A DNA stretch of 64,000 nucleotides, taken from assembly GCA_021733985.1 (NCBI GenBank), contig JAIPJT010000004.1:2923-66922 (forward strand). The letters are read 5' to 3'. The notes under the pieces are model-generated. The model saw only the letters and a list, made by a program, of their open reading frames with translations, did no database searches and was not told the DNA's origin. This stretch comes from Victivallales bacterium. Its GTDB lineage: Bacteria > Verrucomicrobiota > Lentisphaeria > Victivallales > GWF2-38-69. The stretch's first letter is position 1; every line of letters begins with the position of its first letter. This document shows, piece by piece, positions 988-34,173 of the stretch. A program made the translations under genes and the position numbers.

Positions 988-2547
988 TTAGACAGGCTTA
1001 GCTATTCCGTGGAAAATAATGTTTGTTCCTGGCATTTTCTGCCTGGATAATGAAGTCCTTATATTTAATAAAGTGCCGTTTCCCTTTTTTATTTTCAGCT
1101 TTATTTTTCTGTTTGAAGCTTTGTCAAAAAATCTTTTATTCATTATTCTGTGATACCTTTTTTCTATTATGTGAAAAGGCGTTTTTTTTTCCTTGTTAAT
1201 ATGTGAGTCCTTAAAATGTTCTTTAAGAGTAACAAGCTTGCGATTATAATTAATAAAATCCGAGATAGAATGTCCGGTTATTTCCTCAAAATTTTTGCTC
1301 AGATATGTAAACTGAAGTTGGTTTTCTCCGGTGAACTCTGCAGTCCATGCAATAGAATTTGTTCTGCCGGAGAGTTCATCCATCAGTTTTTCATAGGCCG
1401 CGGAATTACTTTCTTTCTGTTTTTCTTTATTGTATAAGAAAGTACATCCTATTGTATATAAAGAGCTTCCTATTTTTACACCGCTCTTTATAGCCTTTAC
1501 CCATCTTGTGCCATATTTGCTGCTGATAAACCTGTAGATCTTATTAGTCATTATAAAAGGGTTTCGGTAAATATTATCATCAATTCCTTCTTCATCCATT
1601 TCTTTATCCATCTGTCCTACATCTTCAGGATGCCTCTTGCCGTTCCTTAAGTAATCGAGCTGTTCATTCCTCTTGGCTTTCATGTCTTCTGAATAAAATT
1701 CAAGCATACTTTCCCCGGAAACATCAAAAAGGGTTTTACCGTCTTTCCAGACCGAAACATTAAAACCCGGACCTGTTTCCAGCAGTATATGTAAAATCTT
1801 ACTAATCTCTTCAGCCTGTTTTCTATCAGTTATGTCAACAAAAGTACCCACGATTCCGGCTATCCTGTTTTCAGTATCGAATATGGGTAATTTTGAAATT
1901 ATACCCCACTTCTTTTTTCTTGTACCCGGAATATATGATTCAGAGTTTTCTACAGGGATTCCGGTATTAGTAACATATTGGTCTTGCTGATGGTTCTCTG
2001 CTGCCTCTTTTCTGTTAAAAAAATCAAAGTCGTTTTTATTGTTCACGTTGAAATCTGAACTTAAGCTCAGATTATTCAAAAATGAATTGTTTGCCGTTAT
2101 GTAATTTAAATTCTTGTCTTTAATGTAAAATATTGTAGGCATGGATTTTAAAAGTGCATTTATAATTGTTGTTGCCTGTGTTAATTTTTCCTCCAGCTTT
2201 AATATCTCCCTGTTTATCAGGCTGAACTCCCTTTTCTGAACTTCCTTGTCCGCGCTGCCGAGCAGATACCAAGAATCAATGGATTCAGATAAGTTGCTGG
2301 TTGATTTAGTGACTGTTTCTTCAAGGTCAGATATTTTTGTAACAGAAACATTTAAGGCCTCTGCTAAATTTCTAATGTTTTTCTCTCCAGGCGCGTAACG
2401 TTTTTTTTTCCATGCCCAGAAGGTAGTACGGTTTATATTTATCAAACTGCAGAGACCGGTTACGGAAAGGCCCCGTTCCTTCCGCAATGTATCGATTTGT
2501 TTGAAATTTATATTCACAATTGACCATTTGTTAACCATTGACAACAT
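988..2547 (-). CDS. XRE-family HTH + PAS-domain transcriptional regulator (paralogue 1); start may be GTG at 2517
   Basis: N-terminal HTH (LRKERGLSVTGLC...RTTFWAWK), PAS signature IFYIKDKNLNYITANNSF...GIVGTFVDITDRK. Confidence 0.8.
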   Translation of the reverse strand: MLSMVNKWSIVNINFKQIDTLRKERGLSVTGLCSLININRTTFWAWKKKRYAPGEKNIRNLAEALNVSVTKISDLEETVTKSTSNLSESIDSWYLLGSADKEVQKREFSLINREILKLEEKLTQATTIINALLKSMPTIFYIKDKNLNYITANNSFLNNLSLSSDFNVNNKNDFDFFNRKEAAENHQQDQYVTNTGIPVENSESYIPGTRKKKWGIISKLPIFDTENRIAGIVGTFVDITDRKQAEEISKILHILLETGPGFNVSVWKDGKTLFDVSGESMLEFYSEDMKAKRNEQLDYLRNGKRHPEDVGQMDKEMDEEGIDDNIYRNPFIMTNKIYRFISSKYGTRWVKAIKSGVKIGSSLYTIGCTFLYNKEKQKESNSAAYEKLMDELSGRTNSIAWTAEFTGENQLQFTYLSKNFEEITGHSISDFINYNRKLVTLKEHFKDSHINKEKKTPFHIIEKRYHRIMNKRFFDKASNRKIKLKIKKGNGTLLNIRTSLSRQKMPGTNIIFHGIAKPV

Positions 2548-2759
2548 ATAAGTTGAGTAAACACAACAATAATGTAAGATTATTTTTTATTTAAATAAAA
2601 CAAGCAGATTTATAAATTTTATTAAATATTTTAAAGTTAAACCTTCAGTTCTTTTTGATAATTCACGTTAATCTGTGAGATCAGCGGATATGAAAAAGGA
2701 ACTCTGTCCGCGGATTACGCTGATTTCCGCTAATAAAAAAAATAAAATCATCATTTACA

Positions 2760-3470
2760 ATGTCCTCTAAAATACAATATTTACTGATCGGCAACGGCAG
2801 GCTAGCGAAGCATCTTGTTAAATATCTGGATGACATGAATATTTCATTTATTCGCTGGTTCCGTGGATGTAAAGCTTATCTGTGCGAAGCGGCAGCCGGA
2901 AAAGATAATATAATTCTGCTTGCTGTCTCAGATTCGGCAATAGAACCTTTTATCAAAAAAAACAGGAACATATTAAGGAACAAGACCATAGTCCATTTTT
3001 CAGGTGCTTTATATACACCTCTTGCATATGGCTGCCACCCGTTAATGACTTTTTCAGATAAGCTTTATGAAAAAGAATTTTATCAGAGGATTTTGTTTAC
3101 GCTTGATGAAGATGCTCCCGATTTCAATGAGCTTTTCCCTGAACTTGACAATCCTAATATAAAGATTTCATCTGATTCCAAAGCTAAATATCATTCGCTA
3201 TGTGTCATGGCTAATAATTTCACTTCTCTGCTGTGGCGTAAATTTTTTGTTGAAATGAATGAAAGCTTTAATGCGGACAGCTCATGGTTAATTCCGTTTC
3301 TTGAGCGCACTGCTCAAAATATAACAGAAGATTATAAAGGATGTCTTACAGGGCCACTGGCAAGAGGGGACTATGAAACTGTTGAAATGAATATCAAAAG
3401 CCTTTCCGGGGACCCCTGGCAGAATGTATACAAAAGTTTTGTTGAAATATACCACAAAAAGGAAGAATAA
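2760..3470 (+). CDS. panG: Rossmann-like/DUF2520 protein, probable PanG-type ketopantoate reductase
   Basis: IGNGRLA Rossmann motif, HFSGA, HPLMTF, LTGPLARGD; stop overlaps panB start. Confidence 0.7.
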   Translation: MSSKIQYLLIGNGRLAKHLVKYLDDMNISFIRWFRGCKAYLCEAAAGKDNIILLAVSDSAIEPFIKKNRNILRNKTIVHFSGALYTPLAYGCHPLMTFSDKLYEKEFYQRILFTLDEDAPDFNELFPELDNPNIKISSDSKAKYHSLCVMANNFTSLLWRKFFVEMNESFNADSSWLIPFLERTAQNITEDYKGCLTGPLARGDYETVEMNIKSLSGDPWQNVYKSFVEIYHKKEE

Positions 3471-4258
3471 TGAAGATTAATGAATTTATACAAAGGAAGC
3501 AGTCAGGACAGAAAATATCCATGATTACCTGTTATGATTATACTTTTGCCGGCATTATTAACGAAACTGATATTGACAGTGTCTTAGTCGGCGATAGCGG
3601 TACAATGATTATGCACGGTTCAAAAACAACGACAGAAGCAACTGTGGATGAGATCAGTTTTATGATTAAAGGTGTTTCAAGGGCAATTGATAATAATAAA
3701 GTTATCGTTGGTGATATGCCTTTTCTGTCATACCGGAAAGGGCTGAAATTTGCGATGAATACAGTGGACGCATTTGTCAGGTCCGGCGCTAATATTGTGA
3801 AGCTTGAAGGTGTTGAGGGAAATCAGAAAATTATAAAGCATATAATAGGATCCGGCGTACCGGTAATGGGGCATATTGGATTAACTCCGCAGTCAATAAA
3901 TGCGCTCGGCGGCTATTTTGTGCAGGGAAAACTTGAGAAGGATGCTGAAAAGTTGCTTGAACAGGCAAAGGAATTATCAGATTTAGGCTGCTGTTCGATT
4001 GTTCTTGAATGTGTACCTTCAGAACTGGCCCGCATCGTTACCGAAACGGTTGATATACCTACTGTAGGTATTGGAGCAGGCCCTAATACCGACGGACAGG
4101 TCTTAGTGCTACAGGACATGCTGGGAATGTTTAAAGATTTAAAACCGAGATTTGTAAGACGTTACCTGGATGGATTTCAACTGGTTAAGGACGCTTTAAA
4201 TCATTATCACAGAGAAGTAGCAGAGTCGGTTTTCCCTGATTCTAAAGAAAGTTTTTAA
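3470..4258 (+). CDS. panB: 3-methyl-2-oxobutanoate hydroxymethyltransferase
   Basis: TCYD, LVGDS, VKLEG, GHIGLTPQ, DGQVLV motifs. Confidence 0.97.
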   Translation: MKINEFIQRKQSGQKISMITCYDYTFAGIINETDIDSVLVGDSGTMIMHGSKTTTEATVDEISFMIKGVSRAIDNNKVIVGDMPFLSYRKGLKFAMNTVDAFVRSGANIVKLEGVEGNQKIIKHIIGSGVPVMGHIGLTPQSINALGGYFVQGKLEKDAEKLLEQAKELSDLGCCSIVLECVPSELARIVTETVDIPTVGIGAGPNTDGQVLVLQDMLGMFKDLKPRFVRRYLDGFQLVKDALNHYHREVAESVFPDSKESF

Positions 4259-4261
4259 ATT

Positions 4262-5020
4262 ATGAAAATATACAAAAATATATATGAATGGCAGAATACA
4301 AGGCGAACTATCCCTAACGATAAAAAATTGGGAGTAGTACCTACAATGGGTGCTTTACACGAAGGACATTTAAGCCTTATTAAACAAAGTAAAGCTGAAA
4401 ATGACTTTACTTTAGTGACCATTTTTTTAAACCCGACTCAGTTTAATAATAAAGAGGACTTAGTTAATTATCCTGCCACCTGGAACGTTGATGTTAAACT
4501 CTTGAAAAATTTGAAGACAGATTATCTCCTGGCGCCCGATTTTAAACAGATATATCCTGATAATTATAATTTTACGATAAAGGAAAACAAGCTAAGTAAA
4601 ATTTTGTGCGGCTCAGCGCGTCCCGGACATTTTGACGGCGTCCTGACAGTTGTAATGAAACTTTTGATGTTGGCGGATGCTGACAGGGCATACTTCGGAG
4701 AGAAGGATTTTCAGCAGTTACTGCTTGTGAAAAAGATGGCTGAAGCCTTTTTTGTGAAAACTGAAATAGTTCCGTGTCCGACTATCAGAGAAAAAGACGG
4801 CCTGGCATTGAGTTCAAGAAACAGGCGGCTTTCCTCAGAAGGAAGGAAAAAAGCTTCTGAATATGCCCGTATTATCAAGCAGAAAAAAAATCGATCAGAA
4901 ATACGGGAAGAACTTGAAATGAACAATATAAAAGTGGATTACCTGGAAGAGTTTTTCGGCAGAAGGTTTGCTGCCGTATTTATAGACAACATCAGACTTA
5001 TAGATAATTTTAAATTATAA
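4262..5020 (+). CDS. panC: Pantoate--beta-alanine ligase
   Basis: [41 protein letters not shown]. Confidence 0.97.
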
Positions 5021-5031
5021 AGGAATATCCT

Positions 5032-5397
5032 ATGAAAAGAACAATGCTGAAATCCAAAATTCACATGGCTACCGTAACGGAGGCGAATTTAGAATATCAC
5101 GGATCAATTAGTATCTGTCCCGATTTGTATGAAAAAGCAGATATGCTGCCCTTCGAGAAGGTGGATATTTACAACTGCAATAACGGAAATCGATTTTCAA
5201 CTTATGTAATTCCGGGAAAAAAAGGTGAGATTTGTTTAAACGGTGCAGCGGCAAGGCTTGTAGCACCCGGTGATAAAGTAATTATTGCATCTTATGCTGA
5301 ATATGAACAGGGAGAATTAAAAAACTTCAAGCCTGAGCTGGTTTTTGTTGATAAAAATAACGAAATTTCAGAGGTCAGACACCAGTATATAACTTAA
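5032..5397 (+). CDS. panD: Aspartate 1-decarboxylase
   Basis: KSKIH, Y(H)GS cleavage site, [15 protein letters not shown]. Confidence 0.97.
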
Positions 5398-5596: not shown

Positions 5597-6193
5597 TCAA
5601 TGCTTTACTGTCTGGTGCTGCTCACGGATCCTTTCAGTAGAAATATGCTCACCATCAGTATTCTGCAGGTAGAGATAACCTACAAAAATACCGCCTTTTC
5701 TTACAATAAGGCTGCGGCAGGTTATATTGCCCCTTACTTCTCCCTTTTTCAGGATTTCAACTGATCCTTGTGCGGTAATATCTCCTATGACTTTGCCTCT
5801 TATCACTGCATTGCCAACCTGAATGGTTGAAGTCGCTATAATGCCTTTTTTCTGTAAATAAAGTTGACCATGGGTCTGTATAACTGCACCAAAAATAGTT
5901 TTTAATTTATGATCGCTTAAATCATTGCGCTGATAACAGTATTTACATATTACAGCCTGTGCATTCTTGTCAGCAATAATTTCTTTTCCGCATTTGTAAC
6001 AAAAAAGCTTTCTTTTTTCAATTTCAAATTTTTGCTTTTGATTATTCGTTCCTGGGAGTTCCTTCACATTTATCTGCCGTTTGCAATTTTGACATTGAAC
6101 CAGCGAGCTATATTGAGATAAAAATAGTGTACCCTGACAGTAGGGACACACTATTTTTTTCTTTTCGGGAGATTCTGAAGTGTGGTGATTCAT
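5597..6193 (-). CDS. Bactofilin-domain protein with N-terminal double zinc ribbon
   Basis: Four CxxC pairs followed by beta-helix repeats (IRGKVIGDITAQGSVEILKKGEVRGNI). Confidence 0.75.
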   Translation of the reverse strand: MNHHTSESPEKKKIVCPYCQGTLFLSQYSSLVQCQNCKRQINVKELPGTNNQKQKFEIEKRKLFCYKCGKEIIADKNAQAVICKYCYQRNDLSDHKLKTIFGAVIQTHGQLYLQKKGIIATSTIQVGNAVIRGKVIGDITAQGSVEILKKGEVRGNITCRSLIVRKGGIFVGYLYLQNTDGEHISTERIREQHQTVKH

Positions 6194-20455: not shown

Positions 20456-21184
20456 TTAAGTCTCAGTTTTCCCAGTTATCTTTTTTGCTATATAAGAAGC
20501 CACATCTTCAGGATAAGTCCCTCTGCTGAAACCCGCGTCGTAGCCAAGTTCTATAGCCAATCTGTTAGTGATTCTGGGGCCGCCAACCACTACTATAAGT
20601 TTATCTCTAAGTCCTTCTGCCTCCAAAAGTTCAATAAGGTTAGTCATATTATGAATATGAACCTCTTTTTGTGTAACAATTTGAGAAATCAATATTGCAT
20701 CTGCATTAACTTTTTTTGCGTACTCAATAAATTCTTCATTTTCAACCTGGGCACCAAGGTTATGAGCTTCTATCATGGTGAATCTTTCGAGCCCGTAATG
20801 ATGGTCATAGCCTTTCATGTTCATTATGGCATCAATGCCGACAGTATGTGCATCTGTACCGGTACAAGCACCTACTATTACAAGTTTTCTTTTGATGTTT
20901 TCTTTTATGTAGTCATTGACTTCATAGAAATCCATACCTTTTTCTACTTCATCGACAACAATTTTATCAAAATCAACAGTAATTGAAGATGTTCCATAAG
21001 CAACAAAAAAAGTAAACCCCCTGCTTAATTCATGTGAATGAGCTATTTCACATTCTTCAAATCCCAGTTTTTTCATATACACAGAAGCTGCTTCATTTGC
21101 TTTGGCGGAAGCATCAACCGGCAAAGTGAAAGATACTTGAACTTTACCGTCGTTTAAAGTATCCCCGTAAGGTCTAATCATCAT
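20456..21184 (-). CDS. kamE: Lysine 5,6-aminomutase beta subunit (cobalamin-binding)
   Basis: RPYGDTLNDGKVQVSFTLP, GTDAHTVGIDAIMNMKG (DxHxxG plus PLP Lys); start moved to RBS-supported ATG. Confidence 0.95.
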   Translation of the reverse strand: MMIRPYGDTLNDGKVQVSFTLPVDASAKANEAASVYMKKLGFEECEIAHSHELSRGFTFFVAYGTSSITVDFDKIVVDEVEKGMDFYEVNDYIKENIKRKLVIVGACTGTDAHTVGIDAIMNMKGYDHHYGLERFTMIEAHNLGAQVENEEFIEYAKKVNADAILISQIVTQKEVHIHNMTNLIELLEAEGLRDKLIVVVGGPRITNRLAIELGYDAGFSRGTYPEDVASYIAKKITGKTET

Positions 21185-21214
21185 TTTACAAACCCTTTCT
21201 TTTATATTCAATTA

Positions 21215-22789: not shown

Positions 22790-22803
22790 TCTATTTCCTT
22801 TCA

Positions 22804-24387
22804 TTATTTTTTGGCTAAGTATTTTTTTGCCTGTTTAATTATATTCGTATCAAGGCCGAGAATTTCGGCTATTTTAAGTGCGTCATAACAGGAAGCCCTG
22901 TTTGTATCATGTTCTATTTCATATTGCATAAAACTGTTAATCAGTTTTATTCTTTCTATGAAATCATAACCCGATTTAGATTTATAGTATTCAGTATACT
23001 TTTTATAATCCAGCCCTTTCATTCGGTAGAAGCACATTTCATCAAACTCAGGAAGATTCATAAAATGTGTTGATAAAAACGCATAGGCTATTTTTCTTGT
23101 GCTGAAATCGTTCAGTATGGCGGTTATAAGCGCTTCTGCCTCATGTGAATTTGTAGTACCCGCAAATTCGTCTATTAGATATAAGGCCTTTTCATTTGTA
23201 ATTCTGCAGGATTGAATAAAAGAAAAAATTTCCATACCGTAACTGCTCAAACCTGAAGAGTGTTCATGGTGAAGGTCTCCTATATAATGGAGGTTTTCAA
23301 AGACAGTGGTTTTATATTCTTTTGCAGGTACAAAGAACCCCATCTGTGTTAATACCTGAAGGAAAGCTATAGTTTTAAGAACAACTGTTTTACCACCCAT
23401 ATTAGAGCCGCTAATTACAATCATACGGTTTTTAAACAATACATTCAGCGGATAATATATAGTTTCCAGTTCAAGACAGTGTTCCATTACCGGTATACTT
23501 CTGCCTTCTTTTACTTCAATATTGCATCCGTATTCCTGTAAAACCGGTTTTTGCATATTATATTTTTCTGCAAGTACGGCTTTAGCTAAAATAACATCAA
23601 ATTTGTGTATTGATTTGATGTAACTTTTAATAAGTTTCAATTCTTTTTTTATTTTTGAAGACAGTTCTGTTATAACATTTTTTTCTTCCTGTTTTTCTTC
23701 TATAACAAGCTCTTCCTTGGTATAGTGCAGAGTAAAGTATTTTTCCGGGAGTACAGGCTTTATCAATACTTTGCTTGAGTCATAGCTTTCCTTATAGATA
23801 TAGTTACTGTCCATGTTTAAGACTTTCGCTTCTTCTATAACAATAAAGTTTTGAAATCTGAAATCCAGATTGAAGTTATTCTTAATATATTCAAGCCGTT
23901 CCCGTTTAAGGTTGAATAACTGTTTATCAAAATGTTTTATCCTGTTTCTTATTTCAGCCAGTTTTTCAGAGTAATTTTCACTTAGATAAAATGTTTCCTT
24001 ATTCCCGTTAAGGTTTAATTTTTTAAATAAACCGGTGGGTCTGAATTTCACAAAAAAGAGCATATATATTTCTTCAGGAAGAATTTCAGATATTTTTTTA
24101 TAGTTAAATAAAAACTTTTTAATTTCAAAGATATTAGTTGCGGTATAGCAATCGTTCTCAAGGAAGTTTAAATGCGGTATTCTTTTTAAATGGTATTCCA
24201 GTGAAGATGTTTTAGCAGTATCGCTTACAAGAAGAGAAATAAATTTTTTAATAAAAGAGTATTCAGTATTTAAATATTCTTCAGATGTAAATAATTCCCG
24301 TTTAGTTTTATCATTTTTTCCGTAAGGTGTAAACGGTGAGTATTTTTGATAAAAAGATTCAAACTCTGCAAAATCAAATATATTCAT
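22804..24387 (-). CDS. kamC: MutS-like ATPase, lysine 5,6-aminomutase reactivase subunit
   Basis: ISGSNMGGKT Walker A, GLSSYGMEI, LIDEFAGTTN, STHF; no mismatch-binding domain; adjacent to kamDE. Confidence 0.8.
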   Translation of the reverse strand: MNIFDFAEFESFYQKYSPFTPYGKNDKTKRELFTSEEYLNTEYSFIKKFISLLVSDTAKTSSLEYHLKRIPHLNFLENDCYTATNIFEIKKFLFNYKKISEILPEEIYMLFFVKFRPTGLFKKLNLNGNKETFYLSENYSEKLAEIRNRIKHFDKQLFNLKRERLEYIKNNFNLDFRFQNFIVIEEAKVLNMDSNYIYKESYDSSKVLIKPVLPEKYFTLHYTKEELVIEEKQEEKNVITELSSKIKKELKLIKSYIKSIHKFDVILAKAVLAEKYNMQKPVLQEYGCNIEVKEGRSIPVMEHCLELETIYYPLNVLFKNRMIVISGSNMGGKTVVLKTIAFLQVLTQMGFFVPAKEYKTTVFENLHYIGDLHHEHSSGLSSYGMEIFSFIQSCRITNEKALYLIDEFAGTTNSHEAEALITAILNDFSTRKIAYAFLSTHFMNLPEFDEMCFYRMKGLDYKKYTEYYKSKSGYDFIERIKLINSFMQYEIEHDTNRASCYDALKIAEILGLDTNIIKQAKKYLAKK

Positions 24388-25237
24388 AAGGATTGAAAAC
24401 AACTTTCTCATTTATACAGTTTTTAGTTAAAGCCTGGTTAAAATCTTCCCTCGTTATGTCAAATAAATTTACAGATATAAAGTTCAAGTGGAATTTTTCT
24501 TTATAATATACTGTTGTCCTTTTCAGCAGATCAGAGAGCTCATTCCAATTTAGAAAAATTTTAGTGAAATCATTAATTAGTATTATATTAAAAGCTTCAG
24601 GTATCTTTGAAGCTTTGATATTTGTAAGCGCTCCTTCACAGACAAAGCATTCTTCTTCTTCAAAATCTTTTTCTTTCTTAACAGGAAATTTTTTTACCAA
24701 ATTTAGTGTTTTGATTTGATTTAATGATTTAATTAAATTTTTCTGTGATACTTTCATAACATAAATGAATTCAGCTTCAGGGGCTGAAGTAATTTGAGTT
24801 ATTCTGTTGACTGCTCCGTCAATAAGATTAGTCTTTATAACTGTTTCTTCTCTTAAATATTTTAAAATAAAATCAAGCTGTGAATTGTTTTCGGGGCCGA
24901 TAAGTTCTATAGAACCTTTCCTGAGGATTCTGATTAACACAAGCCGTCCGAGTTTTGAGATAAAAGGGAATACTTCTACTACTTCAAAAACTGCATCTGT
25001 AACAGTTAATGCATATTCACAAGTTACAATATAATCATTTTTTTCTGCTGTAATACCGGGTTTTGGAGTTCCGAAGATCATATCTTCTTTTTCTCCGTCA
25101 ATGCCGATCGTCATATAACATAATGAATCGGCCTTCTTCCTTATGAGCGGAAGAAGGTAATTCAAAAATGTTGTTTTTCCGGCATTTTTGCTGTTCCCGG
25201 TTATAAAAGTAGTTTTATTGATTATACTATTTATCAT
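24374..25237 (-). CDS. kamB: Lysine 5,6-aminomutase reactivase subunit (P-loop)
   Basis: GNSKNAGKTT, TIGIDGE, LIDGAVNR; position before kamC-kamD-kamE. Confidence 0.75.
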   Translation of the reverse strand: MINSIINKTTFITGNSKNAGKTTFLNYLLPLIRKKADSLCYMTIGIDGEKEDMIFGTPKPGITAEKNDYIVTCEYALTVTDAVFEVVEVFPFISKLGRLVLIRILRKGSIELIGPENNSQLDFILKYLREETVIKTNLIDGAVNRITQITSAPEAEFIYVMKVSQKNLIKSLNQIKTLNLVKKFPVKKEKDFEEEECFVCEGALTNIKASKIPEAFNIILINDFTKIFLNWNELSDLLKRTTVYYKEKFHLNFISVNLFDITREDFNQALTKNCINEKVVFNPYEYI

Positions 25238-25243
25238 GTCTTT

Positions 25244-26446
25244 TCAATTTGCCTGTTTTGTTCTAACATCTATTACTTTTTCATTTTCGGTTTCAAATGT
25301 GATAGAACCATATTTTTTTGTCTCCATACAATAACCTGCTATGAATTCATCGAGGGTAAGTTTCTGACTTTCCAATGGGGGGAAAAGCCCGTTTTGCAAT
25401 GCACATTTTGCACCATGCGGCATGCCGTCAGAACTGAAAATTAAATCTACGCCGGGAATATAGCCAGCCTGGTCAATAAGCATCCTGAACGGATTATTTT
25501 TCTTTAGGCACTCGTCAGTTAATTTACCTTTGAAAAGTATGGATTCTTCCGAGAAGTTTATCTGCATAGAAAGTACTATTCCAAGTTTTTTGCATTTTAA
25601 AGCTACTTCCGGTGATATATACTGAGCATGTTCGATTCTCATACATGGAAGCTTAATGTTTTCCTGTTCTATAATATCTACTAATTGTTCAATTACTATT
25701 TCACCTAAAGCATGTGCCGCGACAGCCTTACCTTCGGATTCGGCAAATTTGAGATCATTTTTAAGTTCCTCATCTGTATAGAGTTTTATTCCACCGTCAA
25801 AGTCGGAGTTTACATACCCGTTAATAGCTGCTGTACCGGGACTTATTGCCCCGTCAAGAAAAATTTTAAAACCGGCTATTTTATCTTTATATTTTTCAGG
25901 CAGAGTTTTATAAGATTTCAGGTCTATCCAGATTTTTACTCTGTGTAAATAACCGGTTTTTTCATATAAATCTATAAAATCTGTGTTGGGTAAAAGCAGA
26001 TCCTGCATTTTGTAAATTTGATTTTCTTTAAGCATGTAATCGAAAAATTCATGAACATCTTTTTCAGTAATTTTTTTAATTTGCGGAATAAATTTAATAA
26101 TCGAGTAAAGGTTATGTTCGATCCATTCAAGATTTTCAATATTATTTACAATTTCCGGAAATTCATCTATTAACTTGTCTTTTGCCTTCTGATTCATTAT
26201 GTAATTGTGAAGGGAACTATCGCATATCAGTACTGCAGGAAGTTCTTTTTCAATTCTGTCTTTTGCTGTATCTCCGAAAGTCCATCCAAGAACAACATTT
26301 ACATCTTCGTCAAGTTCTTTTATTCTGTTTAAAGCTTTTTCCAAATCCTTAACGTTTCTCAGATCGAGACAGTTTCTCAGTGCCAAATAAAAGGAAGTGT
26401 GAGTGTGATGGTCATTAAGCAGCGGAATATTGTGTGTTGTTTTCAT
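25244..26446 (-). CDS. Metal-dependent amidohydrolase (amidohydrolase_3/YtcJ-like)
   Basis: DHHTH, KIFLDGA, AAHALGE, RIEHAQ, FSSDGMP metal ligands. Confidence 0.82.
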   Translation of the reverse strand: MKTTHNIPLLNDHHTHTSFYLALRNCLDLRNVKDLEKALNRIKELDEDVNVVLGWTFGDTAKDRIEKELPAVLICDSSLHNYIMNQKAKDKLIDEFPEIVNNIENLEWIEHNLYSIIKFIPQIKKITEKDVHEFFDYMLKENQIYKMQDLLLPNTDFIDLYEKTGYLHRVKIWIDLKSYKTLPEKYKDKIAGFKIFLDGAISPGTAAINGYVNSDFDGGIKLYTDEELKNDLKFAESEGKAVAAHALGEIVIEQLVDIIEQENIKLPCMRIEHAQYISPEVALKCKKLGIVLSMQINFSEESILFKGKLTDECLKKNNPFRMLIDQAGYIPGVDLIFSSDGMPHGAKCALQNGLFPPLESQKLTLDEFIAGYCMETKKYGSITFETENEKVIDVRTKQAN

Positions 26447-26474
26447 TTTTAACTCCTGTAATATTTAGTTAATA

Positions 26475-27758
26475 TTATTCTTCTTCATGGATTGCCTGAG
26501 GATTGTAGCCTTTTAACTTGTTTACCAGAATCACTAAAATTAAAAAAGCGGTTATTAACAGCATAAATACTGCTCCGGAAATAAAAACAAGTTTAAGCCC
26601 GACAGTTGCTTTGATGTAACTGGAAGCCAATGGAGCGATAACAGTGCCTACTGCTCCGCTTCCTAATACAGCAGTAGTCAGTCTGCTGGTTGCATGAGGA
26701 ACCTGGGTAGTACCTGTAGTAGCAATTGTTGAATATGCTGCTGCAAAGCACATTCCTGTTACTGCGGTAAATAAAAAAGCCCAAATAATACTGATATTCA
26801 ACACGGCCATGAGAAACAGGAGAATACCTGAAAGAGTGCAGATGAAACAGATATAAGTTTCCTGGGAAATTTTTTTTAGTATAAAAGTTGCGGAAAAGCG
26901 GCCGATTATTACAAAACCCCAAAAGGTCGAGATAAGGTAACTGCCGACACTGGCTGTCATTCCTATTTCTTTTTGTCCAAAAATAGGCAGCCAGAATATT
27001 ACAATGGTTTCAGCAATCACATAGAACATTAAAGAAAAACTCATTAAATATACTGTAACAGGCCAGTTAACTAGTTCATCAAGCCATGTCCTGCGGACCT
27101 CCAAATGTTTCGGCCTGGTTTTTTTTGAAGTTGAGACTGAAACTTTTTTGGGCGCTTCAAAGTTTGTAAATAGACAAAGTATAAATGCTAATACTATAAA
27201 AAGAATCACACTTGAAAGTGTTATATTCCAACTGAATTTAAGTTCATCAAGCATATAATTGAAAATTTTAGGAGCAGTAGTTGCACCGATGGCATATACC
27301 AGGGAAACTAATGCCATTTTAGAGGCTCTTTCTTTGTTATCCGTGATATAGATTATCAGATAGTATCCTAAGGAGAAGCACATTCCGTAACCAATTCCGT
27401 ATACAAACAATGCTATGTAAAAAATATGGATATTGGTTGAAATCAGTATTATCCCAATGCCAATAAAAAGTAAAATACTTGTAAGGATATTAGTTGTCTT
27501 AAGTGAAACAAATTCCAGCACAAGGCCTGTTGTGGCAAAAACCATAACTGCACTTGATAATGTAAAAAACGAATAACTTGCTACAGCGCTTGAAACATCC
27601 ACACCTAAAGCTTTGGCTATATCTCCGATCACAACTCCGATTGCCGGAAAACTCGCACCTAAAAAAATCATATAAAGATATGATACATATTCAATTTTTT
27701 TCTTTTCTGTTTTTAGATAACGCATATAGCGCTGTTTCATCGTTTCAGCAGCATACAT
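26475..27758 (-). CDS. MFS transporter (TsgA-like)
   Basis: About 12 hydrophobic helices in 6+6 arrangement, FWGFVIIGRF motif. Confidence 0.85.
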   Translation of the reverse strand: MYAAETMKQRYMRYLKTEKKKIEYVSYLYMIFLGASFPAIGVVIGDIAKALGVDVSSAVASYSFFTLSSAVMVFATTGLVLEFVSLKTTNILTSILLFIGIGIILISTNIHIFYIALFVYGIGYGMCFSLGYYLIIYITDNKERASKMALVSLVYAIGATTAPKIFNYMLDELKFSWNITLSSVILFIVLAFILCLFTNFEAPKKVSVSTSKKTRPKHLEVRRTWLDELVNWPVTVYLMSFSLMFYVIAETIVIFWLPIFGQKEIGMTASVGSYLISTFWGFVIIGRFSATFILKKISQETYICFICTLSGILLFLMAVLNISIIWAFLFTAVTGMCFAAAYSTIATTGTTQVPHATSRLTTAVLGSGAVGTVIAPLASSYIKATVGLKLVFISGAVFMLLITAFLILVILVNKLKGYNPQAIHEEE

Positions 27759-27792
27759 AAACTCCCCCCTTTTATTTTTAATTAAACATAGT

Positions 27793-27826
27793 AACAGATT
27801 CAGCGTAAACCTACGCTGGATCTGTT
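27793..27826 (-). terminator. Intra-operon stem-loop between kdd and the MFS gene
   Basis: AACAGATTCAGCGTA-AACC-TACGCTGGATCTGTT, 15-bp stem with weak U tract. Confidence 0.6.
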
Positions 27827-27835
27827 TTAAACAAA

Positions 27836-28873
27836 TTAAACATATAATTGTTTGTAGAGCTCTCTGATTCGGGTGCTTTCACGGATGATATTAATAGCTA
27901 TATTTGCGTGATTATAAGCATAACCGTTTCCTACAATCATATCAATATCTTTGCCTACACCTTCAGCGCCCAGGGCTGCTTTAGTAAAAGATGTGGCCAT
28001 GCTGAAAAAATATACAGTTCCTCTGTCCTTTGTCATGAGAATTGAACCCATTTCTGTATTCTGTATGTTTACATTATTTATAACTACATCGCAGAGCTTT
28101 CCATTTGTTGCAGCCATAGCTTTTTCATAGCAGCTGATAGCGTCAGTTGCGTCAAGCTTTATGACCTCGTCACATAGTTCCAAACTTTTCAGGAGTTTAA
28201 GGTTTTCATCTGAGTAGTCCATGCCTATGATTTTACCGTTGGGACCGGCGGCTTTTTTAGCGGCATAAGCGCAGAGAATGCCTGATTTTCCTGCAGCACC
28301 GATAATTGCAACTGTATTGTCTTTTTTGACAAGCCTTTCTGTCTGGGCCGGTGCCCCGGCTACATCTAATACAGCCAAAGCAAGTGAAGGTGGAATATCA
28401 TCAGGAAGCTTTGCATATATAGCTGATTCAAATAGTATTGCCTGTCCTTTAATTACAACCTGGTCAATGTTCTTTTTTACTTCCACAATTTCATCTATTT
28501 TTAATGGAGTCAGTGACAAGGATACCAGGCTTGCAATTCTGTCTCCCTCTTTGACTGAAACTTTAGATTTTATTTTATCTCCGATTGCATCTATATTCCC
28601 AATAAACATGCCGCCTGAACCGGTCACGGGATTTTTAAGTTTGCCGTTTCTCTTTACTAAATCCAGGATGATTTCCTTGATTTTTTCACTATCCCCGCCT
28701 GCTTGTTCTTTTATCTGTGTAAAACTTGCAGAGTCCACATTTAAAATATCAACATTGACACGTATTTCGTTGTCAAATAGCTCCATGTCATTTGAAATTT
28801 TTAAAGCTGGCTGAGGCAGTACTCTGGCCGGCTCGATTACTCTGTGGATTCCGTATGGGTTCCCTTGTTTCAT
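27836..28873 (-). CDS. kdd: L-erythro-3,5-diaminohexanoate dehydrogenase
   Basis: GNPYGIHRVIEP, LNVDSASF, NPVTGSGGM, LDVAGAPAQ, FFSMATSF; start at RBS-supported ATG 28873. Confidence 0.95.
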   Translation of the reverse strand: MKQGNPYGIHRVIEPARVLPQPALKISNDMELFDNEIRVNVDILNVDSASFTQIKEQAGGDSEKIKEIILDLVKRNGKLKNPVTGSGGMFIGNIDAIGDKIKSKVSVKEGDRIASLVSLSLTPLKIDEIVEVKKNIDQVVIKGQAILFESAIYAKLPDDIPPSLALAVLDVAGAPAQTERLVKKDNTVAIIGAAGKSGILCAYAAKKAAGPNGKIIGMDYSDENLKLLKSLELCDEVIKLDATDAISCYEKAMAATNGKLCDVVINNVNIQNTEMGSILMTKDRGTVYFFSMATSFTKAALGAEGVGKDIDMIVGNGYAYNHANIAINIIRESTRIRELYKQLYV

Positions 28874-28895
28874 GTTACCTGTTCCTTTGTTTGTT

Positions 28896-29714
28896 TTAAT
28901 TTTTAAGTTTAAACATTTCTCTGACATCTGCGGGCGTTGCAACAGAATATCCTGCGGCTTTGGATATTTTTGCAGCTCGTTCTACAAGCTGAGCATTGCT
29001 TTCGGCTAAAATACCTTTATCGAAATATATATTGTCTTCAAAGCCTACGCGCATAAAACCGCCAAGAGCAAGAGCTCCGTAATGGGCTTCAAGTGCTGCT
29101 TTGCCGCCAATGCCTATTACTGTCCAGCAAGTGCTTTCCGGCAGTCTCCTTACAAAAAAGCCAAGAGTTTCGACATCATATTTTGCCGCACCAGGGACAT
29201 TTAAAACAAAACTGTAATGGTAAGGCGGTTCTATGAGTCCTTCTTTAACAAGGAGATTTGCAGAATAAACATGGGACAAGTCAAAACATTCGAGAGTAGG
29301 TTTAACATTCTGTCTTTTCATTTCTTTAGCAAATTGCCGCATAATAGGCAAAGTATTGACAATATATTCATTTCCGAAATTCACTGTTCCGCAGTCAAGA
29401 GATGCCATTTCTGGTTTCAGTGAAACAACTTCAAGTCTTTCCTCGGGTGACATACCTACACCGCCGCCGGTTGTGACTTCAATGACTATATCACATTTTT
29501 TTCTAATAAGTTCAACTGCTTTTTGGAAAATATTAATATCCATCGTTGCTCTGCCGTCTTTGTCTCTGACATGCAAGTGGCAGATAGAAGCTCCCTTAAG
29601 ATATGAATTATAAGTACTTTCTGCTATTTCTTCGGGAGTAACAGGCAGGTTCGGATTATCTTTTTTGGATGTTTCGGCACCGCAGACAGCCACAGTAATG
29701 ACCATTTTTTTCAT
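28896..29714 (-). CDS. kce: 3-keto-5-aminohexanoate cleavage enzyme
   Basis: ITVAVCGAE, HLHVR, TTGG, RVGFEDN (BKACE/DUF849); operon context. Confidence 0.93.
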   Translation of the reverse strand: MKKMVITVAVCGAETSKKDNPNLPVTPEEIAESTYNSYLKGASICHLHVRDKDGRATMDINIFQKAVELIRKKCDIVIEVTTGGGVGMSPEERLEVVSLKPEMASLDCGTVNFGNEYIVNTLPIMRQFAKEMKRQNVKPTLECFDLSHVYSANLLVKEGLIEPPYHYSFVLNVPGAAKYDVETLGFFVRRLPESTCWTVIGIGGKAALEAHYGALALGGFMRVGFEDNIYFDKGILAESNAQLVERAAKISKAAGYSVATPADVREMFKLKN

Positions 29715-29749
29715 AGTTAAATTTCTCCTGTATTTTATGATTCCCGTTA

Positions 29750-30403
29750 TTATTTAATATCTATAGTTTTTATATCGTCAGGAACAAGAAATTCTGCATC
29801 TGTTGCTTTTTTGATATCATCTATTGTTGTATCCGGAGCGATTTCTTCTAAAACCATTCCTTTATTAGTTATCTTAAAAACACCCATTTCGGTTATAATG
29901 TCAGTAACTTTTCCTGCAGCTGTTAACGGCAGGGAACATTTTTTCATTATTTTAGGATTCCCTTTTTGAGTGTGCAGCATTGCGACTATAACTCTCTTTG
30001 CGCCGGAAACAAGGTCCATAGCCCCACCCATTCCGGGAACCATTTTGCCGGGTATTTTCCAATTGGCAATATCGCCGCTTTGGCTTACCTGTAATGCGCC
30101 GAGAATTGTGACATCTACATGTCCGCCGCGGATAATACCAAAAGAAGTAGCCGAATCGAAATACATTGCACCCGGGTTTGCAGTAACAGGCTGTCCTCCT
30201 GCATTTGTAAGCCTGAGATCTTCATTACCTTTTTCAGGAGCAGGTCCCAGTCCCATAATTCCGTTCTCTGACTGAAAAGTAATATCCTGGCCACTTTCTA
30301 TATAATTTGCCACCATGGTAGGAAGGCCTATGCCGAGGTTAACTACATTGCCGTCATTAAGCTCTTTTGCGGCTCGTTTAGCGATTAATACTTTAGGATT
30401 CAT
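29750..30403 (-). CDS. atoA: 3-oxoacid (acetoacetate) CoA-transferase subunit B
   Basis: VNLGIGLPT, QSENG catalytic Glu, GMGGAMDLV. Confidence 0.9.
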   Translation of the reverse strand: MNPKVLIAKRAAKELNDGNVVNLGIGLPTMVANYIESGQDITFQSENGIMGLGPAPEKGNEDLRLTNAGGQPVTANPGAMYFDSATSFGIIRGGHVDVTILGALQVSQSGDIANWKIPGKMVPGMGGAMDLVSGAKRVIVAMLHTQKGNPKIMKKCSLPLTAAGKVTDIITEMGVFKITNKGMVLEEIAPDTTIDDIKKATDAEFLVPDDIKTIDIK

Positions 30404-30404
30404 A

Positions 30405-31085
30405 TTACAGTTTTCCTCCATCAACTATATAATCAACAAAGATATGAGAAGTTACTACATTGTCGGGGTCAATCTCGCCGACTTCAACGATTTTTGCTGC
30501 TTCAACAATTACTCTGTCACAAGCCATTGCCATTAGCGGATTAAAGTTTCTTTCAGTTTTGCTGTAGCAGATATTGCCTTTTCTGTCTACAATAGCACCT
30601 TTTATCAGAGCGACATCTCCTCTCATAGGCTTTTCCAGGAGGTAGGTCTTTCTGTCAACAACAATTTTTTGCTTATCTTTTTCCACTTCTGTTTTTAGTC
30701 CTGTCGGTGTTAAAATACCTCCAAGCCCGAAACCAGCGGCTCTGATTTGTTCGGCGAGTGTGCCTTGCGGAACTAAAGTTACTTTAGCTTCTCCGGTATT
30801 CATCTGTTTACCGGTTTCCTTATTTGTCCCAATGTGGGTTGATATAAGATGTGAAATCTGTTTATTGACTATTAATTTGCCTATACCGGCTTTAATATTA
30901 CCGATATCTTCTGCGAAGCCTGAGTCATTACATATTACTGTAAGATTTTCAACTTTTTTATTACATAGTTCATCAATAAGCCTGTGCGGTGCACCGCAGG
31001 ATAAAAAACCGCCTATCATTAGAGTGTCGCCTTCTCTTATGAGGTCGGCGGCGATTTCTGCTGTAATAATTTTACTTTTACTCAT
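30405..31085 (-). CDS. atoD: 3-oxoacid (acetoacetate) CoA-transferase subunit A
   Basis: MIGGF, PQGTLAEQIRAAG, RNFNPLMA. Confidence 0.9.
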   Translation of the reverse strand: MSKSKIITAEIAADLIREGDTLMIGGFLSCGAPHRLIDELCNKKVENLTVICNDSGFAEDIGNIKAGIGKLIVNKQISHLISTHIGTNKETGKQMNTGEAKVTLVPQGTLAEQIRAAGFGLGGILTPTGLKTEVEKDKQKIVVDRKTYLLEKPMRGDVALIKGAIVDRKGNICYSKTERNFNPLMAMACDRVIVEAAKIVEVGEIDPDNVVTSHIFVDYIVDGGKL

Positions 31086-31151
31086 TTCTATTTCCTGTTT
31101 TAGCAAATATAAAATATTAAAAATGACGTTTCCTGTTAACCGATTTAAACT

Positions 31152-32399
31152 TTAGCAGTATTTTTCTTCTAAAGCTTTAAAGGTTTCATCGATTGACTTT
31201 AAGGTGTATTTTAAGTCTTTATCTGTATGTCGATAACAAACATACCAGTGGTGATAAGGCTGCAGGAATACATTTTTTCTAATCATTTCAGTATAGAATT
31301 CTTTCCTGATCGCTTTATATGATCCATCTTCATTCTTTGGAAAAGTGATAAAGAACATCGGCGGAATTCCTGTCAGATCTGCATCAATTTTACTTTCAAC
31401 GAGAATTTTTTTAATGCCGTTCATCAAGTATTCGCCCTTTTTCCATATTGTTTCAAGAATATCATTATTTTCGAGTAGTTCTATTGTTTTAAGAGCAGCA
31501 ACATGGCTTATACTGTTGGGGAAGAATGTAGAAGATATGAATACATTTTTGACTGCTTCTTTCATGAATTCTTTTTTTCCGGCTACAGCTCCTATCGGGT
31601 AACCGTTAGCCATAGCTTTGCCGAAAACAGCCATATCAGGTGTTACCCCGTAATATTTCTGTGCACCCCCAAGCGTGACTCTGAAACCGGTTCTTATCTC
31701 GTCAAAAATAACTACAGCGCCATACCTATGTGCAAGTTCCTTAACACTTTCCAGATATCCGGGTTTGGGAGCTTCCATAGGTTTTGCAGTCGGATGCGCA
31801 AAAGGGGTGATAATAACCGCTGCTGTATTGTTCTCATGTTCTTTCAGTAAACTTTCGAGATTTTCAAGATCATTATAATGAAATTCGTGAATATCTTCAT
31901 AAACTTTTTTAGGGACTCCGCCTTTTACTTCTACGCACCAGTTATGCCACCCGTGATATCCGCATCTTAATACTTTTGTCTTCTGTGTATAGGATCGGGC
32001 TATTCTTATTGCGCTTGTTGTTGCATCTGAGCCGGTTGTTACAAAAAGGCTCATTTCTGCGCAGGGAATGTGTTCACGCATTTTTACAGCCAAATCATTC
32101 TGAAATTTCTGAGTTAAGGAAAAACAAAATCCTTTTTCTCTTATTTGTTTAATAACGGCTTCATCGATTTCTTCTTCTCTGTATCCTAAAAGTATCGGGC
32201 CGTATGCACAAAGGTAATCAATATATTCATTACCGTCAATATCTTCTATTCTGCCGCCTTTAGCTTTGTCAAAATAAATAGGATATTCACCTTCTACAAA
32301 GTTATAAGGCCTTCTAATCCCGAGTACACCGCCGGGGATATTTTCTTTGCCTCTTTCGTATTCATTGAGTGAATTGGTGAGATTCAGCTTTTCTGTCAT
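31152..32399 (-). CDS. kat: Class III aminotransferase, probable 3-aminobutyryl-CoA aminotransferase
   Basis: PGGVLGIRRPYNFVEGEYP, FDEIRTGFR, FGKAMANG, SSTFFPNS, QPYHH resemble the Cloacamonas Kat as recalled; first gene of a lysine operon lacking kal. Confidence 0.82.
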   Translation of the reverse strand: MTEKLNLTNSLNEYERGKENIPGGVLGIRRPYNFVEGEYPIYFDKAKGGRIEDIDGNEYIDYLCAYGPILLGYREEEIDEAVIKQIREKGFCFSLTQKFQNDLAVKMREHIPCAEMSLFVTTGSDATTSAIRIARSYTQKTKVLRCGYHGWHNWCVEVKGGVPKKVYEDIHEFHYNDLENLESLLKEHENNTAAVIITPFAHPTAKPMEAPKPGYLESVKELAHRYGAVVIFDEIRTGFRVTLGGAQKYYGVTPDMAVFGKAMANGYPIGAVAGKKEFMKEAVKNVFISSTFFPNSISHVAALKTIELLENNDILETIWKKGEYLMNGIKKILVESKIDADLTGIPPMFFITFPKNEDGSYKAIRKEFYTEMIRKNVFLQPYHHWYVCYRHTDKDLKYTLKSIDETFKALEEKYC

Positions 32400-32607
32400 A
32401 ATTAACTCCTAATGTTATTTTTTATCCAAAAACTGATATTTGTGAGCCTCTGAAAAATAATGATATCATTGTATATTTTCATTACAATAAAAAAAATAAT
32501 TTACTATTGAAAATAAAAAAAATATATAACTAAAAGTCAAACAAATAATTGACTTATAAATTAATTAATATTTATTTGAATAAAAAAGATAAATAAAGGA
32601 AGGTGAA

Positions 32608-34173
32608 ATGTTACTATACTATAAAAAATTAAGATCACTAAGAAAAGCCACAGGCTTACAGACCAAAGTGTTTTGTGAACGCATAGGTGTTTCAGTTTCA
32701 ACTTTGTGGCACTGGGAGAAAGGCAGTAAAACGCCATCAGAGAAAAGAGTTAGAAAATTAGCGAAAGTTTTATGCGTATCGGTTGATGAAATATCGGATC
32801 TGACTCCTGAATACAAAAAATCAGATCAGGATCTGTCTGAGATAATCAATATCTGGCGTGACAATTCGGGTTTGAGTATGAAGGAATCGGAAGCCGAGTT
32901 TAATATACTTATAAATAAATTAATTAGGCAGCATAAAAACCTGATTCAGCATTCCTTAATAACAAAAGCAATACTTTCATCTATTAATTCAATTATATAT
33001 ATTAAAGACATCAATCAAAAATATTTAGTTGCCAATGATGCTTTTATTGAATTATTGGGATTGATTAATGGTTACAGGGTTGACGGAAAAACAGATTTTG
33101 ATTTTTATAATAGTACAGAAGCTAAAGAGATTATTAATCAGGACAATCAGGTTCTTTCTACTGGTAAGCCCATAACAAATTTAAACAGTTTTATGCCCGG
33201 TACAAAAAAGAAGAGACATGCATTAATTTCAAAGTTTCCAATTCTTGATTCAGAGAATAAAATTGTAGGACTTATTGGGACTTACAATGATATTACAGAA
33301 ATGAAAAAGGCGGGAAGAGTAAGAGAGATACTTGAAATATATGTGGGGGCGATGACAGACTGCTTATCTGTTTTTTTCAGTCACAATTATAAGTACATAT
33401 TTGTAAATAATGCTTATGCAGATATTTTCGGATATCCTGTAGAAAAATTTTATGAGGGTGGACTGATTGATTTTTTTGCTGAAAAATGTGTTCATCCTGA
33501 TGACAGGGAACAAGAAAAAAAATATTTAAAGGAAAAAAACTGGCCTAAACAACGTATTTACAGGATTATTAAACCGAACGGTGATGTCAGGTGGCTGGAA
33601 GGAAGTGTGAACAGAAGAAAATATTTTGGTAAGGAATGCTGTATTTCAGTTAACCGTGATATAACAGAAAGAGTTTACGAATCTGCCTTTAGCGACCTGT
33701 TCGGGCTTATACTGGAACATTCTGATGATGTCCTGTGGATTAGAGATAAAACAGAAAATGAAGGGTTGGTTTTTGTATCAGTTTCTGTCAGAAAACTTTA
33801 TGGTCATTCAGAAGATATTTTTTACAAAGATTCATTTTTTTGGTTAAATAAATGTCTTTATTCAAAAGATAAAACTGTATGGTTATTAAACGAAGAAAAC
33901 AGTTCTCTCCGGGACTATAAAAAGGAATACAGGATATATGATTCTAAACAGCAGCTTAAGTGGATAGAATTAACATGCTTCGAATACAAATTTTTAGGTA
34001 AAGAGTGTTATTGTTATCTTGAAAAAAATATTACTGATAAAAAGGCTGTGGAAAAGTCAAAGGAAAATGAAAGCCTAAGAAAGGTTGCGAAAAAACTAAG
34101 AAAAATGGATTTTAATACAGATTTAATTTCCGAGATAACAGAATTAAGTAGAAAACAAATTGAAGTTTTATAG
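32608..34173 (+). CDS. XRE-family HTH + three PAS domains regulator with Rpn-like C-terminal tail (paralogue 3)
   Basis: HTH (VSVSTLWHWE), PAS repeats (IYIKD, VHPDDRE, DITE), tail VAKKLRKMDFNTDLISEITELSRKQIEVL. Confidence 0.82.
   Translation: MLLYYKKLRSLRKATGLQTKVFCERIGVSVSTLWHWEKGSKTPSEKRVRKLAKVLCVSVDEISDLTPEYKKSDQDLSEIINIWRDNSGLSMKESEAEFNILINKLIRQHKNLIQHSLITKAILSSINSIIYIKDINQKYLVANDAFIELLGLINGYRVDGKTDFDFYNSTEAKEIINQDNQVLSTGKPITNLNSFMPGTKKKRHALISKFPILDSENKIVGLIGTYNDITEMKKAGRVREILEIYVGAMTDCLSVFFSHNYKYIFVNNAYADIFGYPVEKFYEGGLIDFFAEKCVHPDDREQEKKYLKEKNWPKQRIYRIIKPNGDVRWLEGSVNRRKYFGKECCISVNRDITERVYESAFSDLFGLILEHSDDVLWIRDKTENEGLVFVSVSVRKLYGHSEDIFYKDSFFWLNKCLYSKDKTVWLLNEENSSLRDYKKEYRIYDSKQQLKWIELTCFEYKFLGKECYCYLEKNITDKKAVEKSKENESLRKVAKKLRKMDFNTDLISEITELSRKQIEVL

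Follow-up and report, generated by a model that had tools for sequence, protein, structure and literature searches.

The window, which is the whole 64,000-nucleotide (nt) stretch of DNA analysed here (contig JAIPJT010000004.1, from a Victivallales bacterium), encodes three regulators, denoted A, B and C, that belong to a family which we refer to as XRE-PAS. The source genome of the window (G000, 2.46 Mb) was compared with nine other genomes of the same GTDB family (G001 to G009; ten in total), and the term copies is used hereafter for XRE-PAS family members. An earlier note on this DNA had placed the three genes at 988–2547 (minus strand), 19124–20215 (plus) and 32608–34173 (plus), and had ascribed to their products a distinctive basic motif and a common architecture. 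The open reading frames are present at these places, the motifs are found in the translations of A, B and C, and all three share an XRE-type helix-turn-helix (HTH), a long helix, a first PAS domain (PAS1) and then one or two further PAS domains. Pfam identifies an XRE/Cro-C1 HTH and a PAS_4 domain in each, with HTH_3 above the cut-off in B and C and below it in A, and the N-termini of A and B are 39–40% identical to that of C. The ATG at 2547 proposed as the start of gene A is probably not the true one; the gene more likely begins at the GTG at 2517, because all paralogues and the A orthologue align from there and ATG 2547 lies inside a candidate operator. Each regulator gene is placed head-to-head with metabolic genes, as described previously: A with DUF2520-panB-panC-panD, B with a GH18 chitinase gene and C with a lysine-fermentation operon (Table 1).

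Table 1. Coordinates of the three regulators, their candidate operators and the adjacent genes in the window.
Feature	Position	Strand	Remarks
Regulator A: XRE HTH, helical linker, PAS1, PAS2, PAS3	988..2517	-	509 amino acids (aa) from the likely GTG start
PAS1 basic loop PGTRKKK, regulator A	1909..1929	-	coordinates computed from alignment position
Candidate operator of A, CAACATATAAGTTG	2542..2555	.	one-mismatch palindrome of the AACAT-N2-ATGTT type; 25-38 nt upstream of the GTG
Pantothenate operon: DUF2520 protein, panB, panC, panD	2760..5397	+	predicted target of A
Secreted GH18 chitinase with CBM2 and Big_9 repeats	14302..18876	-	divergent from B
Regulator B: XRE HTH, linker, PAS1, PAS2	19124..20215	+	363 aa
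Lysine-fermentation operon	20456..32399	-	predicted target of C
Candidate operator of C, AAGTCAA-N8-TTGACTT	32534..32555	.	perfect palindrome
Regulator C: XRE HTH, 35-residue helix, PAS1, PAS2, PAS3, three-helix tail	32608..34173	+	521 aa
PAS1 basic loop PGTKKKR, regulator C	33196..33216	+	between strands 189-195 and 204-213 (model)
C-terminal three-helix tail of C, RpnS-like	34036..34170	+	weak TIGR01784 match, positions 231-271, E 0.0034; helices in the model
kamA, lysine 2,3-aminomutase, apart from the operon	34686..35933	-	NCBIfam

This orientation is not random, since 11 of the 12 copies in G000 are divergent from their upstream gene, compared with 592 of 1972 genes genome-wide (30%, in our own set of open reading frames). 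The other G000 copies are adjoined upstream by fabH, a second lysine cluster with kamA, hutH-hutU-ftcD, aconitase and ATP-citrate lyase, an aminotransferase and oxaloacetate decarboxylase, a REC-GGDEF gene, an efflux pair and a protein with a pilin-like N-terminus (recognised by eye; no Pfam match), and the neighbour of the sole co-directional copy is a type I secretion adaptor. Family-wide, 98 divergent and 16 co-directional genes were counted among 114 resolvable upstream genes (129 members, fetched loci), and a later set of 50 members gave 36 and 9, respectively (45 resolved).

The association of particular regulators with particular operons was traced on a quick maximum-likelihood tree of 157 N-termini with Shimodaira-Hasegawa-like approximate likelihood-ratio test (SH-aLRT) support. 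The hutH-linked copies of G000, G003, G005, G007 and G009 form one clade (support 96), as do the bioF-linked copies, with this neighbour seen in four genomes (82), the pan-linked pair of G000 and G005 (99), the lysine-cluster copies, two of them from G000 and one from G005 (99), and the pckA-linked copies (100). The A orthologue in G005 is 64% identical across 508 aa and divergent from the same pan genes, beside which the order DUF2520-panB-panC is the same; panD was not found within the 6-kb flank of this orthologue. Beside the C orthologue in G005, the order from the aminotransferase gene to kdd is maintained, and kamA of that genome falls inside the run of the lysine operon. The pairing of regulator and operon is thus supported for the pan and lysine genes, being kept in another genus, but could not be shown to be conserved for the chitinase, since no orthologue of B with genomic context was found. 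The 157-row tree contains no close relative of regulator B, the full-length relative P0183 of B (54% identical) comes without genomic context, and the members adjoining chitinase or CBM2 genes in G006 and G004 fall in other clades. A second lysine-related cluster (L002:7957-12649, on contig C2 of G000) is divergent from a sister paralogue of C and encodes an amidohydrolase 51% identical to that of the window, a membrane protein, a DAP-epimerase-like protein and a second KamA (71%). On contig C39 of G000 (L007:5015-6405), a class III aminotransferase gene divergent from the C39 paralogue is split into adjacent open reading frames of 161 and 302 aa, which points to a frameshift or to an error in the assembly.

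Searched with a profile built on the common N-terminal part, G000 yielded 12 copies, 11 of them close and one distant, and eight of the nine other family genomes carry between 5 and about 89, which bears out a lineage-restricted expansion. Copies were counted by hand, a full-length row being one that runs from profile position ≤15 to ≥220. Full-length copies number 5 in G001, 11 in G004, 10 in G008, 12 in G009, 17 in G006, 46 in G005 and 89 in G003, the last count coming from a genome with 7% contamination in which 150 of the 163 candidates were scored; at least 10 are present among 20 matches in G007, and G002 yielded a PAS-only match alone. The best matches from ten genomes of other Victivallales families were devoid of the HTH, and outside the family full-length matches were detected in 2 of 296 sampled genomes of the phylum (nine candidates scored per genome), both from one sister family. 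In the first search for relatives, the matches from outside the family were PAS proteins without an HTH, mostly histidine kinases (11/11 loci read). When 185,579 species were scanned for the exact motif, a search with little sensitivity for divergent members, the 28 loci retrieved were all from records titled Victivallales or Lentisphaerota, and the named protein matches were assigned to Lentisphaerota or simply to 'bacterium'. Moreover, the strict loop PG[TS][RK][KR][KR] occurs in 81 of 119 core members and in none of 63 top scorers without the complete N-terminus. As a genomic pattern, the XRE-PAS family is well supported. Among sequencing runs, three DNA runs from a single study, and no RNA run, were listed as containing this DNA.

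In the four genomes in which regulator families were compared (G000, G008, G005 and G003), XRE-PAS outnumbers each of LysR, GntR, AraC, LacI and TetR, in a comparison that left out MarR, Crp and sigma-54 activators. Matches over the cut-off to these five families, in that order, were 0, 0, 0, 0 and 1 in G000; 4, 0, 2, 0 and 2 in G008; 4, 2, 4, 2 and 5 in G005; and 16, up to 8, 5, 7 and 10 in G003. A separate regulator expansion was encountered in G021, from another family of the same order, whose 138 GntR matches are mostly 340–400 aa long. Sister lineages therefore appear to meet regulation by different expansions, with 138 GntR matches in G021 versus 0–8 in the XRE-PAS family genomes.

The architecture of the family was examined on an AlphaFold2 model of C (50-row alignment; mean predicted local distance difference test score, pLDDT, 89.7; predicted template modelling score, pTM, 0.59). 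The model displays a five-helix HTH at residues 5–62 and a helix at 91–125 that continues into PAS1 (129–228), followed by linker helices, PAS2 (252–351), PAS3 (375–474) and a three-helix tail. Within PAS1, K133, D179 and K209 are invariant and E193 is near-invariant. The closest solved match of this domain is the PAS domain of VqmA (E 5e-7), in which K23, D71, D85 and K101 align with K133, D179, E193 and K209, and F67 and F99 with N and I, respectively. Consequently, PAS1 may conserve a polar pocket. Two candidate ligands were rejected: binding of 3,5-dimethylpyrazin-2-ol (DPO) is unlikely, given that both phenylalanines that stack on DPO are replaced, and heme binding through an invariant histidine is not supported because PAS1 has none.

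Distal PAS domains number 0, 1, 2, 3, 4, 5 and 6 in 12, 69, 37, 25, 9, 2 and 2 of 156 complete members, respectively, and often contain an H(P)(D/E)D...R motif. Across all pairs of 114 core members, PAS2 has a median identity of 18% (95th percentile, 33%), compared with 39% for the HTH and 45% for PAS1, whereas in 11 pairs of orthologues linked to the same operon PAS2 is 49–78% identical. In the orthologue pairs tested, the HTH is 54–74% and the recognition helix 64–100% identical. In the two orthologue pairs of the window regulators, the values for PAS2 versus PAS3 are 77 vs 46% and 62 vs 32%. The conservation of PAS2 within operon-linked orthogroups, the sole observation that bears on the point, is consistent with the proposal that distal PAS domains set the ligand specificity. 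The distal modules are also variable, as anticipated, with apparent swaps: in seven pairs the second domains resemble each other although the N-termini are unrelated, and in several pairs the situation is the opposite. Two G005 copies, for instance, share 66% identity in PAS2 with N-termini only 34–39% identical, and two G003 copies have 64–72% identical N-termini and 23% identity in PAS2. These arrangements look like module swaps between family members, and one HD-GYP-type domain (59–72% identical) is likewise found on unrelated N-termini.

The statement that these regulators lack kinase, GGDEF and AAA output domains is correct, according to Pfam, for A, B, C and all 12 G000 copies, and neither kinase nor receiver domains were detected in these 12 copies and 22 relatives; it fails for a few relatives that end in an HD-GYP-type domain. 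In three proteins (L138:844-2202, L061:1501-2868 and L088:1501-2871), from three genomes and two N-terminal clades, the XRE-helix-PAS1 portion is fused straight to such a domain, and these fusions could combine DNA binding with cyclic di-GMP phosphodiesterase activity. One relative bears an FmdE-like C-terminal domain. Furthermore, at least 34 of the 156 members end in a tail resembling the C-terminus of Rpn proteins, with weak matches to the C-terminal part of TIGR01784 (E 1e-5 to 3e-3) and to PDB 7th0 (E 0.13). An Rpn toxin-antitoxin pair was considered and rejected, as the PD-(D/E)XK nuclease domain was not found and none of the ten family genomes contains a full Rpn protein above the TIGR01784 cut-off, the matches being weak and limited to the C-terminal part.

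To identify candidate operators, 154 upstream regions were subjected to dyad analysis, which revealed ACAT/ATGT half-sites. The palindrome ACAT-N2-4-ATGT was present in 20 of the 154 regions and in 6 of 1097 controls, far above the other 255 half-sites. Sites of the longer form AACAT-N2-4-ATGTT, with up to one mismatch, accompany an R-x-T-x-W recognition helix in 27 of 58 cases versus 20 of 146 for other helices at equal AT content, and this link holds with one member per cluster (median p 4e-5). Most of the sites (40/54) are located 25–100 nt upstream of the regulator's own start. The candidate operator of A aligns with a perfect AACATATATGTT in its G005 orthologue. Regulator C, whose recognition helix is without the arginine, is preceded by a palindrome that differs from the ACAT type. 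This palindrome has two genome matches at ≤1 mismatch, of which the site upstream of C is the sole intergenic one, and a near-perfect aligned site lies upstream of the G005 orthologue. It has no exact match in 207 loci, is absent upstream of the C2 lysine-cluster paralogue and is not repeated near kamA, and thus does not point to a regulon. If a promoter-like match on the minus strand, itself not above chance, is used to place the start, the centre of the palindrome lies about 91 nt upstream of it; such a spacing is activator-like (class I activation). The promoter scan as a whole was not above chance (5 vs mean 2.9), and palindromic expectation-maximisation across all upstream regions returned poly-A/T patterns alone. 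When motifs were sought class by class for the remaining helix types, only leads emerged (for example, ATGTAG with Ser-6 helices), without correction for multiple testing. The bioF-linked copies (L160, L049 and L087), which have Ser at position 6 of the recognition helix, carry upstream a repeated TTACAGTT that differs from the ACAT palindrome and is inverted in one copy and direct in two. Among the six control regions that contain the strict ACAT-N2-4-ATGT site, four precede the amino-acid genes metK, argB, dapF and lysA (G000 C9:11518, C66, C16 and C59; recognised by eye from the N-termini), metK being preceded by a perfect 18-bp palindrome; these genes are possible distal targets.

Taken together, these findings suggest, with a probability that we put at roughly 0.7, that XRE-PAS proteins are local one-component transcription factors that dimerise via the long helix and PAS1 and regulate themselves at a palindrome, with a metabolite bound to PAS2 controlling the divergent operon. 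The predicted binding site of each protein is a palindrome close to the regulator's own promoter, which the protein would contact as a parallel dimer, the 35-residue helix and PAS1 holding the two chains together. With its polar pocket and basic loop, PAS1 would serve all members as a scaffold linking sensor and HTH. PAS2 would be the specific sensor, recognising pantothenate or coenzyme A (CoA) in A, lysine or a pathway intermediate in C, histidine or urocanate in the hut-linked copy and biotin or a precursor in the bioF-linked copy. The bound ligand would twist the helical spine and thereby shift both HTH heads. As to the outcome, we lean slightly towards self-repression combined with activation of the divergent operon, given that the sites cluster 25–100 nt from the start of the regulator and not from that of the operon; autoregulation at a palindrome is common among XRE proteins (PMC12565409; here and below, statements on published systems refer to the accessible parts of the sources cited). 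New specificities could arise when the HTH-linker-PAS1 cassette is duplicated, its recognition helix changed and its distal modules exchanged or stacked.

Several observations weigh against this interpretation. The strict ACAT-N2-4-ATGT palindrome was not replicated in 50 held-out regions (1/50, p 0.27). The relaxed AACAT-N2-4-ATGTT motif with one mismatch, which was defined after the strict form had failed, occurred in 9 of the 50, where shuffled sequences gave a mean of 4.9 and 8 of 300 shuffles reached 9; against AT-matched controls (30/409) it passed weakly (p 0.017). Only 3 of the 12 G000 copies have the relaxed site, B has no conserved site either by eye or by the family motif, and the TTGACT of the lysine-operon site resembles a -35 box. 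The pairing with operons is also incomplete: of the eight family genomes with a close hutH, five have a copy divergent from it and G001, G004 and G008 do not. Most clades of the tree are specific to a genome or genus and have differing neighbours, and resolution is lacking for 60 of its 154 inner branches. The conservation of PAS2 among orthologues partly reflects shared descent. As for uniqueness, HTH_3+PAS clusters are present in the ESM Atlas, the few classified members being Thermodesulfobacteriota, Pseudomonadota or Bacillota, so that the pair of domains as such also exists beyond this lineage.

The same data bear on other explanations. The proteins could be local transcription factors that respond to a common signal, PAS1 binding a family-wide ligand or partner, the distal PAS domains acting as spacers or in oligomerisation, and specificity coming from the HTH only. 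PAS1 is the best-conserved sensor domain, its four polar residues match those of VqmA, and the 12 members without distal PAS, three of which have HD-GYP instead, fit a signal received there. We nevertheless regard this as unlikely, since PAS2 is conserved about as well as PAS1 or better within operon-linked orthogroups, not between them, the aromatic stackers of VqmA are replaced, and K209 is not kept in a second subfamily. Less probable still is a self-regulating gene that spreads by duplication, with most divergent neighbours as bystanders and few copies recruited. Copy numbers from 5 to about 89, tandem pairs, genome-specific clades, the many unrelated or uncharacterised neighbours, sites nearest to the regulator's own start and the Rpn-like tail are all features that would fit such an element. 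It is countered by five pairings that are shared between genera (pan, lysine fermentation, hut, bioF and pckA) and by the strong divergent bias; in addition, broken copies are few, no nuclease or transposase domain was found in the scanned members, and full Rpn is missing from the ten family genomes. We give very little credence to the idea that the HTH is no longer DNA-specific and that these are soluble sensor scaffolds acting on protein partners through the basic loop or tail: arrays of up to seven PAS domains, and a loop and tail without a known role, would suit it, but the HTH and recognition helix are retained in the orthologue pairs tested, at the identities given above, and the upstream palindrome co-varies with the recognition helix.

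Beyond the reading of XRE-PAS proteins as local metabolite-responsive factors, we tentatively propose, at somewhat less than even odds, that one family has rebuilt much of local metabolic regulation on an XRE-helix-PAS1 chassis. This chassis would combine a readable helix-to-operator code with swapped PAS domains that bind metabolites and, in occasional cases, with tails of the HD-GYP, FmdE-like or Rpn type, replacing regulators of the HutC, BirA and LysR types in parallel to bHLH-PAS proteins. If so, PAS2 would represent a natural library of sensors for histidine/urocanate, biotin, pantothenate/CoA and lysine catabolites, with the ligand guessable from the neighbouring operon. Most PAS domains have no known ligand; here, the neighbouring operon predicts one and a candidate operator is at hand, which could make dozens of PAS domains assignable. 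Should the distal modules prove exchangeable on a constant DNA-binding cassette, the family would also offer a ready biosensor scaffold.

Among the adjacent genes of the window, the lysine-fermentation operon encodes a class III aminotransferase, CoA-transferase subunits A and B, Kce, Kdd, an MFS protein, an amidohydrolase, a KamB-like protein, KamC, KamD and KamE; Kdd, KamC, KamD and KamE score above the NCBIfam cut-offs and Kce slightly below. The aminotransferase heading this operon (31152–32399) gives its best score as HemL-like, and a stand-alone kal was not seen within the window lysine cluster. The enzyme is probably Kat (a candidate assignment), the 3-aminobutyryl-CoA aminotransferase of a variant lysine pathway (PMC3149608). 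In the window chitinase (1524 aa), a pair of catalytic GH18 domains is accompanied by two CBM2 and three Big_9 repeats, and related proteins adjoin family members in G004 and G006. We take the DUF2520 protein of the pan operon to be PanG-like. At 5597–6716, two bactofilin genes lie side by side, the product of one carrying a double zinc ribbon at its N-terminus.

No account of an XRE-HTH/multi-PAS family was found in the literature on the architecture, on the lineage or on Lentisphaerae regulators, supplements and paywalled text excluded. The nearest precedent is MmyB/MltR, which joins an XRE HTH to a PAS-like ligand-binding domain and reaches up to 36 paralogues in Streptomyces (PMC3406030). 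Both families have an N-terminal XRE HTH, a C-terminal PAS-related sensor, no enzymatic output, many paralogues, and a conserved DNA-binding domain with divergent sensors. MmyB, however, carries one atypical PAS-like domain, is found mostly in actinomycetes and is linked to the metabolism of antibiotics and fatty acids (PMC3406030), whereas XRE-PAS proteins have a canonical PAS_4 after a 35-residue helix, 0–6 further PAS domains and neighbours mostly of primary metabolism and transport. Membership of XRE-PAS in MmyB was rejected, because Pfam gives PAS_4, PAS_3 and PAS_9 and no MmyB-type domain, and neither taxa nor neighbours fit; MltR (3pxp) was not among the best 60 of 80 PDB matches. The suggestion of a lineage-specific modular system therefore stands with respect to expansion, divergent placement and apparent swaps, but not as a new principle, as lineage expansions of XRE with PAS-like domains are known from MmyB (PMC3406030).

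RpnS, the C-terminal module of Rpn (10.1101/2023.05.02.539157), is three-helical and HTH-like, as is the XRE-PAS tail, which is fused to a regulator and not to a nuclease. Among eukaryotic proteins, bHLH-PAS factors also place tandem PAS domains after the DNA-binding domain, which is unrelated to that of XRE-PAS, making this an analogy of layout and not a matter of membership. The H(P)(D/E)D...R motif is reported from bHLH-PAS proteins and from bacterial cluster 8, with ligand binding by PAS-B in AHR and HIF2-alpha, and the same source calls a PAS cluster resembling the distal domains of XRE-PAS largely unstudied (PMC10468136). VqmA, a DPO receptor in which PAS_4 precedes a LuxR HTH, requires K101 for DPO binding and stacks F67 and F99 on the ligand (10.1101/2019.12.19.881847). 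Like XRE-PAS, it is a one-component PAS-HTH factor, and K23, D71, D85 and K101 are kept or conservatively changed in PAS1; it differs in its reverse domain order, its LuxR-type HTH and its single PAS, and of F67, F99 and K101 only K101 is kept. FG214 of Fimbriimonas is a heme-dependent HTH-PAS switch with ligand-controlled dimerisation on an inverted repeat (PMC13060918, which also describes EL222). It shares the HTH-then-PAS order and differs in having a single heme PAS with histidine ligands, compared with a PAS1 that has no invariant histidine in XRE-PAS; its HTH, moreover, is not described as XRE. The expansion of XRE plus PAS thus has a precedent in MmyB, and VqmA and FG214 are single-PAS one-component factors.

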